In this document: positions 30,476 through 60,050 of the stretch, in pieces
Layout of the letters: every line of letters starts with the position of its first letter
Position numbering within the stretch: position 1 is the stretch's first letter
Source: Okamejei kenojei
Taxonomy: Eukaryota
Direction of reading: 5' to 3'
Assembly (NCBI GenBank): GCA_035221665.1
Contig: CM069133.1
Coordinates: 7,378,001 to 7,442,000 of the forward strand
Length of the DNA stretch: 64,000 nt
Notes under the pieces: model-generated
Database searches by the model: none
Seen by the model: the letters and a program-made list of their open reading frames with translations, nothing else
What the model was told of the DNA's origin: nothing
Translations under genes and position numbers: made by a program

Positions 30476-31209
30476 TACCAATCTTATTGGTTTCATGCTG
30501 CACCATTTCGATTAAATTGTTAAGAGTATCAATTCTGATCATGTATATCCCGGGTTCTGTGTTTGATTGTGATTAGCTATCACGCGTACAGTGGGCATCA
30601 ATGTCTCTTGGATTCTGTATGGAATCTGTTTAGAGATTATCTGACACACAGTTATAAGTTAGTTCATATAGTGGGTATGATTGCTAGTCACACACCACAC
30701 AGATAGTGACCCGAGTAAAAATGAGTAAAATACCGAATGGATGCTCATTATCTTCCAGCTTAGCGAAGGCCAGAGGTGTCCACATTGTATCCCTTTGCAC
30801 ACTGAAGCAGAACATATGAAGTGAACTCTTCTGCGTGAAGGTCACTGGGTGATATAATGTAGGCGTGTGTGAAAATGTACTTTAGCCAGAGCACACAGAC
30901 ATTTAACAAATCGACCAATGCTGCGATCCATGTGTACTCCCGCGTATTTCCTGCACCAGTCATCTCTTTCTGACTCTTGAGTGCGGTAGAAATACTCCTT
31001 TGGCGCATGCACTGCCATGCGCTTATGTTAAACCTATCAACCTCTATGATTTAAATTGTCAATTAATTGTACATTTCGCTTTGTTTTAGTAAATTAATGC
31101 ACCGCAATACAACGATTCAATGATACTTTATTCCCACATGCAGCTAGGTACAGTGAAATTCTTTATTTGTGCATACAATCTAGTAAAACCACACAGCAGA
31201 CCTCACCTA

Positions 31210-32836
31210 CAGTGGCTTGCAAAAGTATTCATACCCCTTGAACTTTTCCACATTTTGTCACGTTAAAACCACAAACGTAAATGTATTTTATTGGGATTTT
31301 ATGTGATAGACCAACACAAAGTGGCGCATAATTGTGAAGTGGAAGGAAAATGATACATTGTTTTCAAATTTCTTTACAAATAAAAAACTGAAAAGTGTGG
31401 CGTGCAAATGTATTCAGCCCCCTTTACTCTGATACCCCTAAATAAAATCCAGTGCAACCAATTGCCTTCAGAAATCACCTAATTAGTAAATAGAGTCCAC
31501 TTGTGTGTAATCTAATCTCAGTATAAATACAGCTGTTCTGTGAAGGCCTCAGAGGTTTGTTAGAGAACATTAGTGAACAAACAAAGTTCCTTGGGCATCA
31601 TGGAGCCCAAGGAACGCACCAGACAGGTCAGGGATAAAGTTGTGGAGAAGTTTAAAGCTGGGTTAGGTTATAAAAAAATATCCCAAGCTTTGAACATCTC
31701 ATGGAGCACTGTTCAATCCATCATCCGAAAATGGAAAGAGTATGGCACAACTGCAAACCTACCAAGACATGGCCGTCTACCTAAACTGACAGGCCGGGCA
31801 AGGAGAGCATTGATCAGAGAAGCAGCCAAGAGGCCCATGGTAACTCTGGGGAAGCTGCAGAGATCTACAGCTCGGGTGGGAGAATCTGTCCACCGGCCAA
31901 CTATTCGTCCTGCACTCCACAAATCGAGCCTTTAAGGAAGATTGGCAAGAAGAAAGCCATTGTTGAAACAAAGCCATAAGAAGTCTCGTTTGCAGTTTGC
32001 CACAAGCCATGTGGGGGACACAGCAAACATGTGGAGGAAGGTGCTCTGGTCTGATGAGACCAAAATTGAAGTTTTTGACCTAAATGCAAAAGGCTATGTG
32101 TGGCAGAAGACTAACACTGCACATCACCCTGAACACACCATCCCCACTGTGAAACATGGTGGTGGCAGCATCATGCTGTGGGGATGCTTTTCTTCAGCAG
32201 GGACAGGGAAGCTGGTCAGAGTTCTTGGGAAGATGGATGGAGCCAAATACTGGGCAATCTTGGAAGAAAACCTGTTAGAGTCTGCAAAAGACTTGAGACT
32301 GGGGCGGAGGTTAACTTTCCAGCAGGACAATGACCCTAAACATACAGCCAGAGCTACAATGGAATGGTTTAGATCAAAGCATATTCATGTGTTAGAATGG
32401 CCCAGTCAAAGTCCAGACCTAAATCCAATTGAGAATCTCTGGCAAGACTTGAAAATTGCTGTTCACAGACGCTCTCCATCCAATCTGACTGAGCTTGAGC
32501 TATTTTGCAAAGATCAATGGGCAAAAATGTCAGTCTCTAGATGTGCAAAGCTGGTAGAGACATACCCCAAAAGACTTGCAGCTGTAATTGCAGCGAAAGG
32601 TGGTTCTACAAAGTATTGACTCAGGGGGCTGAATACTTTTGCACGCCACACTTTTCAGTTTTTTATTTGTAATAACATTTGGAAACCATGTGTAATTTTC
32701 CTTCCACTTCACAATTATGCACGACTTTCTGTTGGTATATCACATAAAATCCCAATAAAATACATTTACGTTTGTGGTTGTAACGTGACAAAATTTGGAA
32801 AAGTTCAAGGGGTATGAATACTTTTGCAAGCCACTG
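31210..32836 (+). mobile_element. Full-length 1627-bp Tc1 element with ~210-bp TIRs and TA TSD
   Basis: TA|CAGTGGCTTGCAAAAGTATTCATACCCCTTGAAC...TTTTGCAAGCCACTG|TA; empty TA at 3088-3089 in the paralogous arm. Confidence 0.97.
31600..32619 (+). pseudogene. Tc1 DD34E transposase (339 codons) with one in-frame stop at 31933-31935
   Basis: ORFs 31573-31935 and 31942-32619 share a frame; WSDETK, QQDND and LNPIE with 34 residues between the second D and E. Confidence 0.93.
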
Positions 32837-33454
32837 TAAGTAATGCACAAAGAGTTGCCATGTTTCTGGCACCGAAAAATGTCGATTGAACGGACATCGA
32901 TGACAGTTCAGTCAAAATTCAATTTCTTTGCATCGATAGAACCCGTCCTTGATTTAACCATTTAATCGCAGCTAAGTATCATCGGTATATCCGCTGGAGT
33001 CACTTTGGTGGCAATGACACCACTGGTAAATAAATGGTTATCTCCATAAACATTGTTCGTTCAAATTCTACCAGAGCAGAGTAATGTACTGCTCATATAC
33101 TGATTAAAGCCCTCAACTGTTTTTCAAACAAATATTATAGGTAGGGTAACCCATGACAAAGCCCAGTGCTAACGTGGGTCTTGGACAAGCAGCAATCAAA
33201 GAGAAGCAGGGAGAAGAGCTTATTGGCTGAAACCCGTGGGAAATGTGAGTAAGTCACAGGGGAAAAACAGTTTAAAACTGAGGATTTTTTTTTTTGTAAA
33301 TTGGTAAATTAGGCAATTTATCAGCCAATATAAGCAAGCTGCTCTTGGAGAGCGGCAGTGAGGGAAGTGTGAGTTTTTGGCTTGATAGTCTTTGGAGAGG
33401 AGACTACGCAAAAAGCTGGAGAGGATGGGAAGCGGTGAAGACATGACGGGTAAG

Positions 33455-52781: not shown

Positions 52782-53566
52782 GTCACCCATTCATTCTCTC
52801 CAGAGATGCTTCCTGTCCTGTTGAGTTACTCCAGCATTCTGTGTCTATCTTTGAAAACAATGAAAGCCTGTCTGTCTGTCTTCCTCAAATATTGCTCACA
52901 CACTGACATCTCTTTTCATTTTATTTCCCCTTTGTTCAGCCTGAATCTATGGTTTTCATCCTTCAGTTAATGTGGTCAACTGTCAATGCATGGGCCGTGC
53001 TTTGGCATCCTGGCATTTCAAGACCACTGAACAAAGCGGTGCAATGAAAAATAATCTCCCGAACTGATCCCTTGTTGGTCTGTTTCCAATTAGACTGCGC
53101 TGAATCACATGGGAAGGTTTCAACCTCCGTTACCTCACGTAGCTATCTCTGATGAAACATTTATTTTTTCCCAGTGGACTCCATATAGGTCTTGCGACGG
53201 ACGCATGGTCGTTTCTTGAGCCCATGTCATACTCGTCATTACATCGCTGCTGATTTTCCTGTTAGGCTCTTTGGAACACTGGAAGGATATTTTAACGCCA
53301 TAGTGTTTATTTCATTCAGTGGTATTTTAATAAGCGATAAAGATTATAAGGTCTGTCGCATTTTAACATAAATTTGAGGAATTCCAAGCATACTTAACGA
53401 AACAACTGCACCATGGAACCGATCTTTAAACCATCTTATTTACAACTATACCATGAGTTTATATTGTGTACCGGGCGCAAAAGCAAGCAGTTTTATTATA
53501 CTCTTGTGCATCTGTCGCAGTTAATAGATGTGAAAGCGTGAGGCCATCTTGCTGTTGAAGTTGGGA

Positions 53567-53971
53567 CTCGGCTTGTACTCGCTAGAATTTAGAAGATTAA
53601 GGGGGGATCTTATAGAAACGTACAAAATTCTCAAGGGGTTGGACAGGCGAGGTGTTGGGGAAGTTCAGAACAAGGGGTCACAGTTTAAGGATAAGGGGGA
53701 AGTCTTTTAGGAGCGAGATGAGAAAAACATTTTTCACACAGAGAGTGGTGAATCTGTGCAATTCTCTGCCACAGAAGGTAGTTGAGGCCACTTCATTGGC
53801 TATATTTAAGAGGGAGTTAGATGTGGCCCTTGTGGCTGAAGGGATCAGGGGGTATGGAGAGAAGGCAGGTACAGGATACTGAGTTGGATGATCAGCCATG
53901 ATCATATTGAATGGCAGTGCAGGCTCGAAGGGCCGAATGGCCTGCTCCTGCACCTATTTTCTATGTTTCTC
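53567..53971 (+). mobile_element. CR1 3' fragment inserted in the VH promoter region
   Basis: TGGGA duplicated at 53562-53566 and 53972-53976; CR1 3'UTR and TTCTATGTTTCT tail. Confidence 0.92.
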
Positions 53972-54154
53972 TGGGAGCCGTGTGTCGGCTCCGCCCGCTG
54001 CACCACTCGGTTTACAGGCCCTGCCCACAGTCACGCCCTCTTTTGCCGGGTATTTAATGCTCTCTGAGAGGGTCCGAAATCCAACTTCCTTGCAGTTGGC
54101 TTGTTGCGAGCTTCTTCTGTCCAGAAACAAACCGGGGTCACACTTCCCAGCGGG
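53972..54154 (+). promoter_or_regulatory. VH proximal promoter and 5'UTR, octamer-less
   Basis: GC box CCGCCC 53991-53996, TATA-like TATTTAA 54051-54057, ETS-like ACTTCC motifs; no ATGCAAAT/ATTTGCAT, as is known for cartilaginous-fish VH promoters. Confidence 0.6.
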
Positions 54155-54200
54155 ATGAGGTCGGCGGTTTCACTGAGTCTGTTCCTGGCGTTAATAGTCC
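54155..54200 (+). CDS. IGHV: Ig heavy-chain leader exon (MRSAVSLSLFLALIV)
   Basis: Hydrophobic signal peptide, 46-nt exon, GTGAGT donor at 54201, phase-1 intron ending TTGCAG at 54374. Confidence 0.95.
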
Positions 54201-54374
54201 GTGAGTAATGAGTTGGACAAATTCCTCACGCAAGTTTCTCAGTGGTATATCCACTCCACCGTTCCCCTTCTACCCACTCCAGCACCCTCCCAATTTATTT
54301 CCTCTTGATAATTAGAGTCGGGGATTAATGGTCAATATTTTATCCTCACCATTCATGCCTTTTATAACTTGCAG

Positions 54375-54676
54375 GTGTCCATTCCGATGTCGTTCTAACT
54401 CAGCCCAAGACAGCGAGCGCCCGGCCTGGAGGCTCCATCACACTGGAATGTAAAACCAGCGGGTTCACTCTTAGCAGCTACGCTATGTATTTGGTCCGTC
54501 AGGTCCCCGGGCAGGGGCTGGAGTGGCTGATTTACTACTACAGTCCTACTAGCAAGTACTTCGCTCCGGGGATAGAGAGCCGATTTACTCCGTCCAAAGA
54601 CAATTCGAATAATAAGTTCACCGTGACCGTCAGGGACCTGAGGATCGAAGACACCGCTGTCTATTACTGTGCGAGA
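54375..54676 (+). CDS. IGHV: Ig heavy-chain V segment (IgM-type), germline
   Basis: (R)VHS-DVVLTQPKTASARPGGSITLECKTSGFTLSSYAMYLVRQVPGQGLEWLIYYYSPTSKYFAPGIESRFTPSKDNSNNKFTVTVRDLRIEDTAVYYCAR; both cysteines present, open frame. Confidence 0.98.
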
Positions 54677-54715
54677 CACAGTGTGGGGATTCAGTGACAG
54701 ACCCGTACAAGAGCG
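54677..54715 (+). other. VH 23-RSS
   Basis: CACAGTG, 23-bp spacer, nonamer ACAAGAGCG (3 mismatches to ACAAAAACC). Confidence 0.92.
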
Positions 54716-55062
54716 GCACGTTGGGAAGTCCAGCTTTTACCATCAAAGACCAGAGGTGAGCATTTTTTTCAACAGCTATAATAACATTCGGAAAATGGAG
54801 CGCAAACTACCATTCGCAAATCCAACACGATATTCACAAATGTAACCAGCGCATTCAAGTGAGATTTATTTGTTCTTTCCTCACTCGTACCGCCAGACTT
54901 GTGTACAATCATAGACCACGAGAATATGCTCATTCCATTACGCAAGTGAGATGCAGGGAGATAGTTGGTGTTATGTTTACTATGTTCTCTGTGAACTGCT
55001 GGTCGATTTAAAATCGTGTCGAAGGCCATTTCAAATGAAACCTGAGTGTGAACTGTATGGGA

Positions 55063-55140
55063 GGTTTTTGTGCGGGTGTGTCTCACTGTGTATACAGTGG
55101 GTCACGGTGCTGCAAACGGCGACTTCCCCGTACAAAAACC
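55063..55140 (+). other. IGHD: D1 segment TATACAGTGGGT (55091-55102) with 5' 12-RSS and 3' 22-RSS
   Basis: GGTTTTTGT-12-CACTGTG [D] CACGGTG-22-ACAAAAACC. Confidence 0.97.
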
Positions 55141-55389
55141 TGGACACCTAGTTTTCTCCTGTTCGAACCTACAAGCACAGCTGGAGAGCCGAGTGAAGCA
55201 AATTCAAATGAAAGTTCACTGCTTAAAGTTACATGGATTGTTTTGAGAAATGTCCAACTGTCTTCCAACCAATTAACGTTATTTTATGTGAGCTTTGGAA
55301 GAACACCGTTTAGCTTTAAAAGTGACAGCGAAGAGTACCCGGGGACATATCCTCTGTGATCAGTGCATGCATCAGATTTTGAAGAGTGA

Positions 55390-55453
55390 AGTATTTGACA
55401 TGGTGTGTTTCACTGTGTATACTGGCACAGCGGTTCATACCAATGCAAAAACA
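55390..55453 (+). other. IGHD: D2 segment TATACTGG (55418-55425) with 12/12 RSS
   Basis: AGTATTTGA-12-CACTGTG [D] CACAGCG-12-GCAAAAACA. Confidence 0.95.
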
Positions 55454-55780
55454 TCCACAACACATAATACCGTGGGCTGGGTCAGTATATGCTATTTTCA
55501 ATTTAATATATCATACTACAGGAGTATAAACATGTCCAGGAATATTTTAGCACGTTTTATTGTATAGGCAACTTGTGATAATTTATATTTTACATGTAAA
55601 TTATTGTAATCACATTTCGCTGCCCTGTAAAATACACGGCACCTTGGCACCTGATTATTGTTGGAAATTATATTTTTAACGCATTCATTATTTTCAAAGA
55701 GCAATAAGGCATTCGCCTTTGGTGCGAAATACAAATACTTACAGGAATTGTATTCTTTTTTGCCTGCCTGGTGCAGATCA

Positions 55781-55819
55781 TGTTATTGTGTGAAGAAACC
55801 CATAGAATGTAACACCGTG
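55781..55819 (+). other. JH 23-RSS
   Basis: TGTTATTGT-23-CACCGTG. Confidence 0.92.
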
Positions 55820-55867
55820 ACTATCTTGGCTACTGGGGCGGAGGCACCATGTTGACCGTAACCAACG
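55820..55867 (+). CDS. IGHJ: JH segment (YLGYWGGGTMLTVTN)
   Basis: WGxG motif, GTAAGA donor at 55868, phase 1. Confidence 0.97.
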
Positions 55868-57600
55868 GTAAGAAACTTCATCCTATTCAGTCTCTAGATA
55901 TATCCAGTTGTAGTTTTAATATATATTTCCAATAATTGTCTTCTGCATTAATTACCCATTCATTGCAATGTTGATCGATGTTGCTTTAGAATGTCATGTG
56001 ATTTAGCTGCAGTGAGATTCCCGAATTAAACTTGCCTTATGTGCTATGACTTCGATCCTTTGACGATGGAACGGATGTGATTTAGTTCCTAATTAGTCGA
56101 AAAATGTGCTTGAATTTGCCTTCACCATGCTTTCAAATTGTTTGAGATTGCTGTGGTCCTAGATCAGCGATGCATCTAACTGTGTTTTCTGATCAACAGC
56201 AGATACTTTGTCTCAGTTTGTTTGTTCTCGGCGCATAGAACCACAGAAAGGGATTAATCCTGGGTGTAAAATGTTCAAGTTTTGTATTTAAGAAGTGTAT
56301 GTATTAATTGGTGGAATCGCATTGCCACCTTTAATCCAATCGCTAACAAAACTTGCATTGAAGAAGTAACGTTTTCTTGGAAAAAACACAGAAGTGCAAA
56401 GTTCTTTCAGGGTACTCAAGGCGGTGTGTCTCCAAATCGTGGAAGCATTGGTAATCACTTTCCAATGTCCTATAGATTTTGGATCAGTTCCTGTGGATTG
56501 AGGATAGATAATGTAATCCCACTTTTCAATAAAGGAGGGAGAGAGAAAACGGGGAATGACAGAGCAGTTGACCTGGCATCGGTATTGGGGAAGATGCTGG
56601 AGTCGATTAGCAAATAAGCATTTGGTTAGCAGTAACAGGATCTATCTATTGTCTATGTATTGGTGTTGTCCATTTGTTATTATGTTATTCATTATGATTC
56701 AACAATGATTGGCTCGGTGGTCTTTGGACCAATGAGTTTCGGTGGTCTATGGACAGAGATGTTTGGATTTTTGTGAAGAGTTTCAGTAAATGTGTGTTGT
56801 GCGATGCAGCCCATCGGCGGTAGCATTCAGCTGGTCATTGCGGGAGACGGTATTGTTGCACAATTGGACGTTTTTGTATGTTCAATTCGAATGGCAACGA
56901 CCGGGTATTGCTGTCGGATTAGGTTATTTCAATAAACGCAATGAAGATGTATGTTTAAAAATAAAAATAAGAAGAAATTGATGTAAATTGATAAGACCAA
57001 TAAATTCTGCAAACACTTAAAGGGTCACGCAACCTGTGGCGAAAGTCAAATCTCAGGCAGGGGACCAGAAAGTTGGTAGCGCCAGAGAACCGACTTCGTT
57101 TCCGAAATCGGTGGCAGACTGTGCAGGTTTGCAGGTTCGTTGAGCTGTGTGATTGTCCCTGGTGTGTCAGGGGTGGATGCGATAGTGCTATAACGTAGAA
57201 CGTGTGTGTCGCCGTGGATTCGGTTGGCAGAAAGATCTATTTCTTTGCTACTTCTCTAATCTTAACTGAATTTGCCATGAATTGGTCATCCAAGTATCGT
57301 TGACCTGGAAATATATTGGTTTTCTCTTTCCACAAGTGCTGCCCAACCCGATGACCCATGTCTCTATTTTCTGTTAAATATCACGAGTTTACCTATTTGG
57401 AAAATACGTTGAATGTCAAATGGGGAAATTTCGGAACGGCTGTAGTATTTAAATAATTTTTAATCCACGCATTTATTAGAAAGACAATTTGAATTCATTT
57501 TTGTCTATGGCGCCCAATGTCATTTAAACATAACGTTCCTCTATTTACTAAATTGCTAATGAAAAATGTAATTTACGAATAGTTACGGTTTAAAAAAAAA

Positions 57601-58860
57601 GAAAATTGGGGAAATGAAGTGGAATGTTGGAAACGAAATGTTCTGCTATTTTAACTATAGAACAGGGTATCCTACTAATCCTTGAATAGAATCAGAATTT
57701 AAATCGATGGCTCAAAGGAGGGTTTGAGTGACGTTCAAAATTACATTTGCATTTAATTAGCAACTGCGCATTTTCACTTTTAAAAGTAAACTTCCTCTAT
57801 ATGAATTAAATACTTTTGGGGTTGAAGTCACGAAGCAAACTTAGATTTTTTTTTCATAGATTGCAGATTGTAATTTATGATGGGTATATTTTTTTTATTC
57901 GTTTCCTATCAGACAGTGATACAACGTTAATCAGTCGTTCTTCAGTGCCGATGATATTGTAAACGTAAACTCGTTTTAAAGATGCTGGAAACGGAACTGA
58001 GCGTCATTGCAAAAACATTAATTTTCATTTGATTATTATTGAACCCATTAAGGGACAGTCCATTGCAATGGTGCACACAGACAAACATTTGAAACCTGTG
58101 CCAATTGATTTAATTAACATGTATTAACATGTTCTTACAATTTATATGCTACATTTAGTCTCCAGATGTTGCAGATAACGTTTATTAATTTAGACATTAT
58201 ATTGAGAGAGTTAATTAAAATCTTTACCAATGCAATCTCTTACATATTTTTAATCCGGTATGAATGTAATGTTCTTATCCAATGTGGGCTGGTTTGCTTT
58301 TCGGAATTTACTTGCAATTACTGTCGGCATACAAATGATCAGGATATTTTTGTGATTGGTAGGAGGACAAAATGTGCAAAGTGACATTTTAGGTGTGTTA
58401 TTTGTCGTTAAATAACAGAGCTTCCATTTCAATCCCATCCACCTCCTTAGTTGGTTTTGTTCGATTGACACATTGTAGGGAACATCTCATGAACAAGATT
58501 GTGATTTTTTTTTATTTTTGCCTTCTCCCAATTTATGTTCGAGAGCCCGATATGGTAAACCAGTCATCTTTCCATTTTCTGTGAATTGATCGGATAGTCT
58601 CTGAACCATTTATAAAACCAAAACTCTTGTCTCCAAATCAAATGTTTTGCCATGGGCACGCTCATGGGTCCAAGCGAAACCTACCTAAATTATTTAATTT
58701 TAATTAAATTAATGCAAATGTAATTTTGAACGTCAGTCAAATCCTCCTTTGAGCCATCGATTCCAATAATCATTCTATTCAAGTATTAGTGGGATACCCT
58801 GTTCTATAATTAAAATAGCAGAACATTCCGTTTCCAACATTCCACATTTCACCAATTTCC
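57601..58860. repeat. Inverted repeat (arms ~57601-57756 and ~58708-58860) in the J-Cmu intron, each arm with a perfect octamer
   Basis: Arms align as reverse complements at roughly 90% by eye; ATTTGCAT at 57745-57752 and ATGCAAAT at 58712-58719. Confidence 0.93.
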
Positions 58861-58899
58861 ATTTGGTTGGGTACATGGAACAACCCCTGACACAGACTG

Positions 58900-59335
58900 C
58901 CCCTATCCCAGAATTCTTCCTTGTGTACCCATGGAGAACTCATGGACTTCATTAGCTACTAACTGAGACCCTACGATCAAATTCATTGGGTCCATCCCCG
59001 ACACATACCTCCACTTTGTTGATCTCACCGTCTCCATCGCAGGAGAAAGACTATCGACTGATGTAAATTGCAAATCTATGGACTCTCACAGCTGTCAGGA
59101 CTACAGCTCTTCCAGCCTTGCCTCCTGCAAACACTCTATGTCCTATTCCCAAATTCACCTGTCTCCGCGCAACTGCTACCAACATGAGTTGTTCCATACC
59201 AGAATATCCGCGGTCCTCATTCTTTAGGGAGCGGGTATTCCCCACTTTTACCATAGATGAGGCCCTCACACGTGTCCACCCTGCATCCCGTAGTTCTGCC
59301 CTTACTCCATCATCCCCAGTCACAACAAGGAGTTT
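58900..59335 (+). mobile_element. Penelope-like relic in the J-C intron
   Basis: Similar to 36980-37400 (GATCTCACCGTCTCCATC, GACTCTCACAGCT, TATTCCCAAATTC). Confidence 0.6.
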
Positions 59336-59753
59336 GGTGAGGTTGTAACCCATACGCCAACATTAGTTATAGCCATTGAGCATTCCTGAGAAACCCTGGG
59401 AATTTTACAGTAATTAATACTGGAGGCCTATCGATATATTTCCAACTTGAGATTGTGCGTAGAGTAACTGCCAGATTACCCCAAGAAGTTTTCAGCCAAG
59501 GTGGGATCAAGGCGGAATGTTGAAGCAGCCATGATCACAACGAATGGCAGTGCTGGCTCGAATGGCCTCCTCCTGCACCTATTTTCTATGTTTCTATTTT
59601 CTATGTTGAACTAATAGTTTATGATACTCGGGTGAAATTTCATGAAATAGAATATTGCGTAACGAATTGCTGTATAATGATTCTTTCGCACTGAATATTT
59701 TGCAAAATGAGCGAGAGAGAGAGTTTAACATTCATGTGACCTTTGACTTGCAG

Positions 59754-60050
59754 TGGCTGATTCTGCCCCCAGCCCCTTCATTCTCTTCACCTGTGAGGAT
59801 CACGGCTCCAGTGGTTCGTTCACCTACGGTTGTTTGGCGTTGGGCTATTCCCCTGTGGGTGCCAGGGTCTCTTGGAAGAAAGATGCTACAGACCTGAAGA
59901 ATGGAGTGAAGGAATACCCGGCAGTGTTCAATAAGTTGGGAACTTACACCCGGAGCAGCGAGTTAACCATCACTGAGGCGGAGGCAGGGGGAGGCGACAT
60001 CTTCTGTGTGGTGCAGCACAACCAAAAAGAGTATAAACTGAAAGTACCAG
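59754..60050 (+). CDS. IGHM: IgM constant exon Cmu1
   Basis: (V)ADSAPSPFILFTCEDHGSSGSFTYGCLALGYSP...VSWKKD...YPAVFNKLGTYTRSSELTITE...IFCVVQH...VP; C1-set domain with an extra N-terminal Cys (expected light-chain bond); AG/GT, 297 nt. Confidence 0.95.

Follow-up and report, generated by a model that had tools for sequence, protein, structure and literature searches.

An octamer-bearing inverted repeat in the J-Cmu intron of skate IgM clusters, a candidate B-cell enhancer

All nine IgM clusters found in the genome of the skate Okamejei kenojei carry, between J and Cmu1, one or both arms of an inverted duplication that is old and was copied along with the clusters. The window analysed here, a stretch of 64,000 nucleotides (positions 7,378,001 to 7,442,000 of contig CM069133.1), contains one of these clusters. 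Its left arm shows a modest signal at the level of motifs, and the repeat is a reasonable candidate for an enhancer. Judged from sequence comparison, the left copy may be the core of a B-cell enhancer present once per cluster, its inverted right twin being dispensable, a tentative reading to which we assign a probability of about 0.45. The initial annotation had proposed such a per-cluster enhancer in palindromic form. The retained motif module of the left arm speaks for the enhancer, but the palindrome is left unsupported, because both octamers are intact in only two (A and I) of the six clusters having both arm cores.

The repeat and its host gene

The host is an intact germline IgM cluster, with the repeat lying within its J-Cmu intron. 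V, two D segments with their RSSs, J and Cmu1 to Cmu3 are all in the window, the V, J and C frames being open, while Cmu4 with its secretory tail and the TM exon are located just past the window end; this layout agrees with the intron position assigned at the outset. The constant exons match four-domain mu-type proteins, the best named one (84%) coming from Amblyraja radiata. The cluster is identified as IgM, and an identity as IgW was rejected, on the strength of four C domains followed by a mu-type secretory tail and a TM exon. A PDB search with Cmu3 returned generic Ig constant domains only. The features discussed below are listed in window coordinates, with clusters lettered A to I, A being that of the window.

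54377 to 54676, plus strand: VH exon, open frame
55820 to 55866, plus strand: JH segment behind a 23-bp-spacer RSS; the intron begins after it
57597 to 57759, plus strand: left arm of the inverted repeat, candidate enhancer core (pairwise alignment and motif conservation)
57610 to 57619, plus strand: near-consensus ETS-IRF site, GGAAATGAAG, with one mismatch; not retained in other clusters
57629 to 57638, plus strand: perfect GGAAnnGAAA (ETS-IRF composite consensus); retained in 5/6 clusters with a left core, altered in E and H
57648 to 57652: site of a SINE-like insert of about 150 bp in seven other clusters; empty in A
57729 to 57734, plus strand: CRE half-site of the left arm; retained in 6/6 left-core clusters
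57744 to 57749, plus strand: E-box CATTTG overlapping the left octamer; first base altered in cluster I
57745 to 57752, minus strand: perfect octamer of the left arm; retained in 6/6 left-core clusters
57760 to 58704: spacer, 945 bp, AT-rich; present only in the same nine IgM loci, in constant orientation where present
58705 to 58864, minus strand: right arm (pairwise alignment and cluster comparison); motifs decayed in most other clusters
58712 to 58719, plus strand: perfect octamer of the right arm; retained in 4/9 clusters
58730 to 58735, minus strand: CRE half-site of the right arm; retained in 8/9 clusters
59756 to 60049, plus strand: Cmu1 exon; the intron ends before it

Aligned without gaps, the arms (57619-57759 and 58705-58845) form a pair of 141 nt that is 91% complementary, with a separation of 945 nt; with gaps (57597-57759 and 58705-58864) the pair extends to 163 columns at 88% identity (E 6e-55). 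The inverted repeat itself is far beyond chance. The octamers have to be considered otherwise: the window contains four perfect ones for 4.38 expected, and the two in the arms are a single duplicated site. The distance from CRE half-site to octamer is 10 bp in each arm, and the right-arm E-box lies at 58715. Motif names and consensus strings (octamer, CRE half-site, GGAAnnGAAA as ETS-IRF composite) follow general usage. The initial annotation had described two inverted arms of about 155 bp, some 950 bp apart and about 90% identical, each with a perfect octamer (57745-57752 and 58712-58719) overlapping CATTTG and a TGACGT half-site about 10 bp away, without a target site duplication (TSD) and without a counterpart elsewhere in the window, and in all these respects it was correct. 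Its ETS-IRF near-match in the left arm is indeed present at 57610-57619, but it is not retained elsewhere, and the perfect GGAAnnGAAA at 57629 had been overlooked. The latter is the sole perfect match within 53901-59760; its 5' flank is pyrimidine-rich, a context poor with respect to the preference of PU.1.

Several other elements were sought. No perfect octamer occurs between 49749 and 57744, a range that spans the VH exon, and no E2A-type E-box (CAGGTG, CAGCTG or CACCTG) within 57597-58864, where only CATTTG and other CANNTG sequences are found. A TSD scan at 16 x 17 boundary positions for lengths of 4-11 bp gave nothing except a single 4-bp match, and no further arm copy exists in the 64-kb window. 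A structured RNA family was rejected, an Rfam search giving no match at E 0.5. Matches resembling MEF2 or kappaB sites at 58694, 58804 and 58877 were set aside as AT-rich or imperfect, those at 58804 and 58877 being variable among clusters.

Searches of the genome with the left arm, the right arm and the spacer (13, 15 and 9 candidates, all scored) converged on the same nine loci, and a search with Cmu1 (91 of 91 candidates scored) gave the identical nine, all of them IgM clusters:

A: the window
B: C3:7.52M
C: C2:161.29M
D: C2:163.07M
E: C2:156.42M
F: C2:163.80M
G: C2:163.73M
H: C12:73.99M
I: C24:44.63M

An arm precedes Cmu1 within collinear intron sequence in 9/9 clusters. The matches are confined to the J-C introns of IgM clusters, and none of the nine clusters is devoid of an arm, the first outcome that the initial annotation had named as support for its claim. 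This confinement follows from the duplication of the clusters, the whole intron being common to them at the same identity. A 21-nt pattern, with one mismatch allowed, has 15 matches in the genome, 14 of them inside arms; its reversed control also has 15, so that only the placement, not the count, is informative.

Unequal fate of the two arms

While the octamer and the CRE half-site of the left arm are unchanged wherever the left core is present, the left GGAAnnGAAA is shifted in one such cluster, G. The right-arm octamer is intact in A, E, H and I only, and the position corresponding to GGAAnnGAAA is intact in 0/9 right arms. At least one perfect arm octamer persists in all eight clusters other than the poorly sequenced B. 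The SINE-like insert occupies the left arm of C, D, E, F, G, H and I, A being without it, and in five of the six left-core clusters it separates the ETS-IRF site from the octamer. The left arms of C, D, F and I retain a further GGAAnnGAAA within the repeat, which A has lost. In D, the V exon is frameshifted, yet the motifs are kept. A single shared deletion has removed the left core, together with some of the spacer, from E and H, and both have broken exons, with indels in Cmu2 for E and a stop in Cmu2 together with frameshifts in V and Cmu3 for H. The coincidence of a deleted left core with broken exons speaks for an enhancer; against it speak the motifs kept in D, the tolerance of the left arm for the insert, and four non-IgM heavy-chain clusters that lack the arm.

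Two of the clusters have to be read with caution. B and G display many single-base indels, each near a 500-N gap, and the left arm of B is missing from the sequence examined. Clusters B (C3:7524216-7531500) and G are either of low assembly quality or decayed copies, and the upstream DNA fetched for them holds no V or J. As a separate matter, V directly abuts J in clusters F, I and E, with no D interval, meaning that they are germline-joined; F and I retain the left-arm motifs.

Taken as a whole, the arms show no excess of conservation over the neighbouring sequence. When A is compared with C, D, F and I, the left arm has 85-89% identity, the right arm 84-87% and the spacer 85-89%, next to 87-92% in the 3' flank, 82-85% in the 5' flank and 85-89% in the Cmu1 exon. 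At the level of motifs, the octamer, the CRE half-site and the ETS-IRF site of the left arm have all their bases invariant in these five clusters (22/22), as compared with 106 of the remaining 138 arm bases (P 0.005), or with 97 of the 118 bases at which the two arms of the window agree (P about 0.02); adding the E-box base makes it 22/23 (P 0.10). This test is post hoc, the arm and the ETS-IRF site having been picked after inspection, and it covers some three independent lineages, C, D and F being nearly identical. On a tree of both arms, from which B, G and the left stubs of E and H were excluded, octamer and CRE half-site account for 3 changes in 14 sites, against 63 in 141 (P 0.15). Over 36 kb of cluster A, about half of it alignable, the octamer at 57745 is the sole perfect one kept in all five clusters, and the GGAAnnGAAA at 57629 the sole one of its kind; the scan includes about 16 kb past the TM exon, only partly aligned. 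Among 2000 shuffles of the intron, an octamer arose in 751, an octamer with an ETS-IRF site within 160 bp in 17, and all three motifs within 160 bp in none, for a motif set that was not fixed beforehand.

These figures bear directly on the most serious alternative, in which AT-rich intron DNA with an octamer in it by chance underwent a neutral inverted duplication and was spread passively as the clusters duplicated, the enhancer being elsewhere, for example 3' of Cmu as in catfish. Such a history is quite possible, if on balance doubtful. It accommodates arms that drift at the rate of their flanks, a chance-level number of octamers, the loss of right-arm motifs, the deletion of the left core in E and H and the insert in the left arm. 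It also fits a genome where short-range inverted repeats are common: 56 were counted in the 454 kb examined, most of them derived from dispersed repeats, although 19 have at most 21 matches in that DNA (the IgM repeat being counted twice), and one, of 219 bp at 93%, is in the window itself. It fits less well with the invariance of the left-arm motif bases, or with the fact that no other octamer or ETS-IRF consensus is common to the five clusters, including in the partly aligned DNA past the TM exon. If it were true, the repeat would be one among many short inverted duplications in this genome.

Should the left copy be an enhancer core instead, the following course of events, in which origin, factor binding and activity are what we infer from the observed distribution and motif retention, may be envisaged. 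Before the clusters multiplied, a small motif module would have been doubled by one local inverted duplication. On their inner side the arms cease to be homologous at a self-complementary AT run, which fits template switching. Thereafter the left copy would have remained under motif-level constraint while the right copy drifted, with occasional gene conversion perhaps keeping the arms alike. The left arm would be occupied by Oct1/2, by a factor of the ATF/CREB type and by an ETS-IRF pair, and might then contact, by looping, the VH promoter, which lies about 3.5 kb upstream and has no perfect octamer.

Arm pairing and mobile-element origin

Pairing itself could matter, if a stem formed by DNA or pre-mRNA looped out the spacer and, maintained by conversion, helped long-range contacts, splicing or switching between clusters. 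A predicted RNA fold does join the arms of A end to end (-414 kcal/mol, a value with no shuffle control), and the mammalian 3' regulatory region (3'RR) provides a precedent, its palindrome arms being self-matching without sequence conservation (PMC3068965). Arms sort mostly by position, which places the duplication before the split of the clusters. At four sites, however, the two arms of A agree with each other but not with either arm of C, D, F or I, compared with three sites that sort by arm across lineages (P 0.001-0.07 according to comparator and assumption), a hint of arm-to-arm gene conversion in a test where the comparators are related and one site stands beside an ambiguous indel. By contrast, the arms have diverged by 10-19% within clusters, the insert interrupts the stem in seven of them, and E and H have lost most of one arm. 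The presence of this insert and this deletion argues that pairing is not required. In addition, the spacer is collinear, with no inversion, in the clusters that hold it. In one other organism an opposite-strand joint (57826/58699, with a side of 119 letters) evoked an inversion of the spacer; a paralogous left arm, whose 119 bp following the insert align to 58698-58816, is the best explanation for it, and the inversion was discarded. All told, a role for pairing as such appears improbable.

The scarcity of related sequences concerns a further possibility, namely that a non-autonomous DNA transposon, a MITE or foldback with terminal inverted repeats of about 160 bp, inserted before the clusters duplicated and left the pair as its relic. 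Long inverted ends do flank a non-coding core, and a genuine dispersed inverted-repeat element does occupy the J-C intron of other heavy-chain clusters. That element served as positive control: taken from another heavy-chain cluster, it yielded 1131 candidates, with dispersed matches down to about 70% identity, so that a family of arms of such an age would have appeared. All candidates being scored, the genome search found no copy of arm or spacer outside the IgM clusters; the many dispersed, TSD-flanked copies that the initial annotation had named as the sign of a MITE are absent, and the inverted repeat is not a detectable MITE family. The arm is also absent from ten other V-bearing regions (four non-IgM heavy-chain clusters, four light-chain clusters and two without class) chosen from 26 non-IgM V matches. 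In four other organisms (4 of 24 listed runs), contigs cover all 30 bins of 57130-59500, and contig depth over the arms, which is not a copy number, resembles that of the spacer and is far below that of two repeat bins. Long pieces span the right-arm core in three of the four, and letters of the left-arm insert are seen in three. With no copy outside the IgM clusters, no repeat-like depth and no TSD of 4-11 bp save one 4-bp match, a transposon origin is very unlikely.

The control element deserves a description of its own. GC-rich and dispersed, with inverted ends of about 160 bp and a purine-rich core, it is located in the J-C intron of four non-IgM heavy-chain clusters, presumably IgW-like (L050:6299-6768, L051:6227-6696, L048:2726-3214 and L046:3276-3734). 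Before C1, the inverted repeat was called in three of these and matched in all four. An architecture common to IgM and non-IgM heavy-chain clusters was rejected, this GC-rich repeat being unrelated and dispersed. In two of the four (L046 and L048, contig C376) V is followed directly by J. On another contig (C241), neither a J nor a C match follows within 20 kb downstream of the two V exons of L042 and L044.

Counterparts in other vertebrates

Emu contains YY1, E-box (uE2, uE4), Ets1, PU.1, IRF and octamer sites (PMC3972084). The skate repeat resembles mammalian Emu (IgHEi) in its position in the J-Cmu intron, its perfect octamer, its candidate ETS/IRF-type site and its AT-rich surroundings. 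It differs from Emu in having no E2A-type E-box in arms or spacer, and in having a CRE half-site beside the octamer and an inverted pair, one per cluster. The lack of E2A-type boxes is the reason why we do not file it as Emu; the likeness rests on position and motif content.

Among fish, the Emu3' enhancer of channel catfish, located 3' of the mu gene and driven by Oct2 through two octamer sites (PMC1800861), likewise associates a pair of octamers with an IgH locus. It has variant octamers and a uE5 site, whereas in the skate repeat, which is 5' of Cmu, the octamers are of consensus type and a uE5-type box is lacking. The palindrome of the mammalian 3'RR (hs3-hs1.2-hs3) also has inverted arms around a spacer, with an enhancer copy per arm in rodents (PMC3068965 and PMC9936319); its arms are of about 3 kb against 160 bp, it lies 3' of Calpha and not in the J-Cmu intron, and its central enhancer flips, while in the skate repeat the spacer does not flip and one arm decays. 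MITE and foldback elements share with the repeat inverted ends around a non-coding core and differ from it by their dispersed copies and TSDs.

In shark, IgH promoters have no upstream octamer, and a limiting promoter-enhancer complex has been proposed for cluster rearrangement (PMC2435157); OCA-B orthologues exist in sharks (PMC13043367). A more ambitious view would make the skate repeat the cartilaginous-fish counterpart of Emu, a head-to-head pair of Oct/CRE/ETS-IRF modules kept alike by conversion, one per IgM cluster, which would supply the Oct input that VH promoters lack and act as a scarce, stochastically assembled switch limiting the number of clusters that rearrange in each B cell. 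We consider it unlikely; were it true, an IgH enhancer in intronic position and palindromic control DNA of IgH would both date back to the base of jawed vertebrates. With three named sites in 160 bp, and with the insert, the deletion and the decayed twin as natural variants, the candidate makes the limiting-complex model directly testable, and it would show whether the intronic (Emu) or the 3' (catfish) position of the enhancer is ancestral. No description of a cartilaginous-fish IgH enhancer, or of this repeat, was found in the literature listings covered, older horn shark and skate papers, key nurse-shark papers and supplements being outside their scope; the words enhancer and octamer do not occur in PMC5192425 and PMC4279169, nor in the 9,779 characters covered of PMC2192082.

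Some observations concern the neighbourhood of the repeat. The CpG observed/expected ratio is 1.27 at 57501-58000, a figure based on only 16 CpGs, against 0.42 for the whole window, a contrast in favour of an enhancer. It ranges from 0.5 to 1.3 over the V-D-J-intron region (53001-58000), which suggests germline hypomethylation. Directly 3' of the right arm, 58970-59290 is a decayed fragment of a high-copy repeat common to the clusters, with very high contig depth in the four other organisms. The inverted repeat of 219 nt mentioned above (31205-31423 and 32623-32841, 93% complementary, 1199 nt apart) is of low copy number, with eight matches in 4 of 40 stretches examined. A TGACGT near 56865 is present in other clusters and altered in that of the window. 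Finally, 56731-56800 is among the intron blocks best conserved between clusters (94%, 45/50 invariant).
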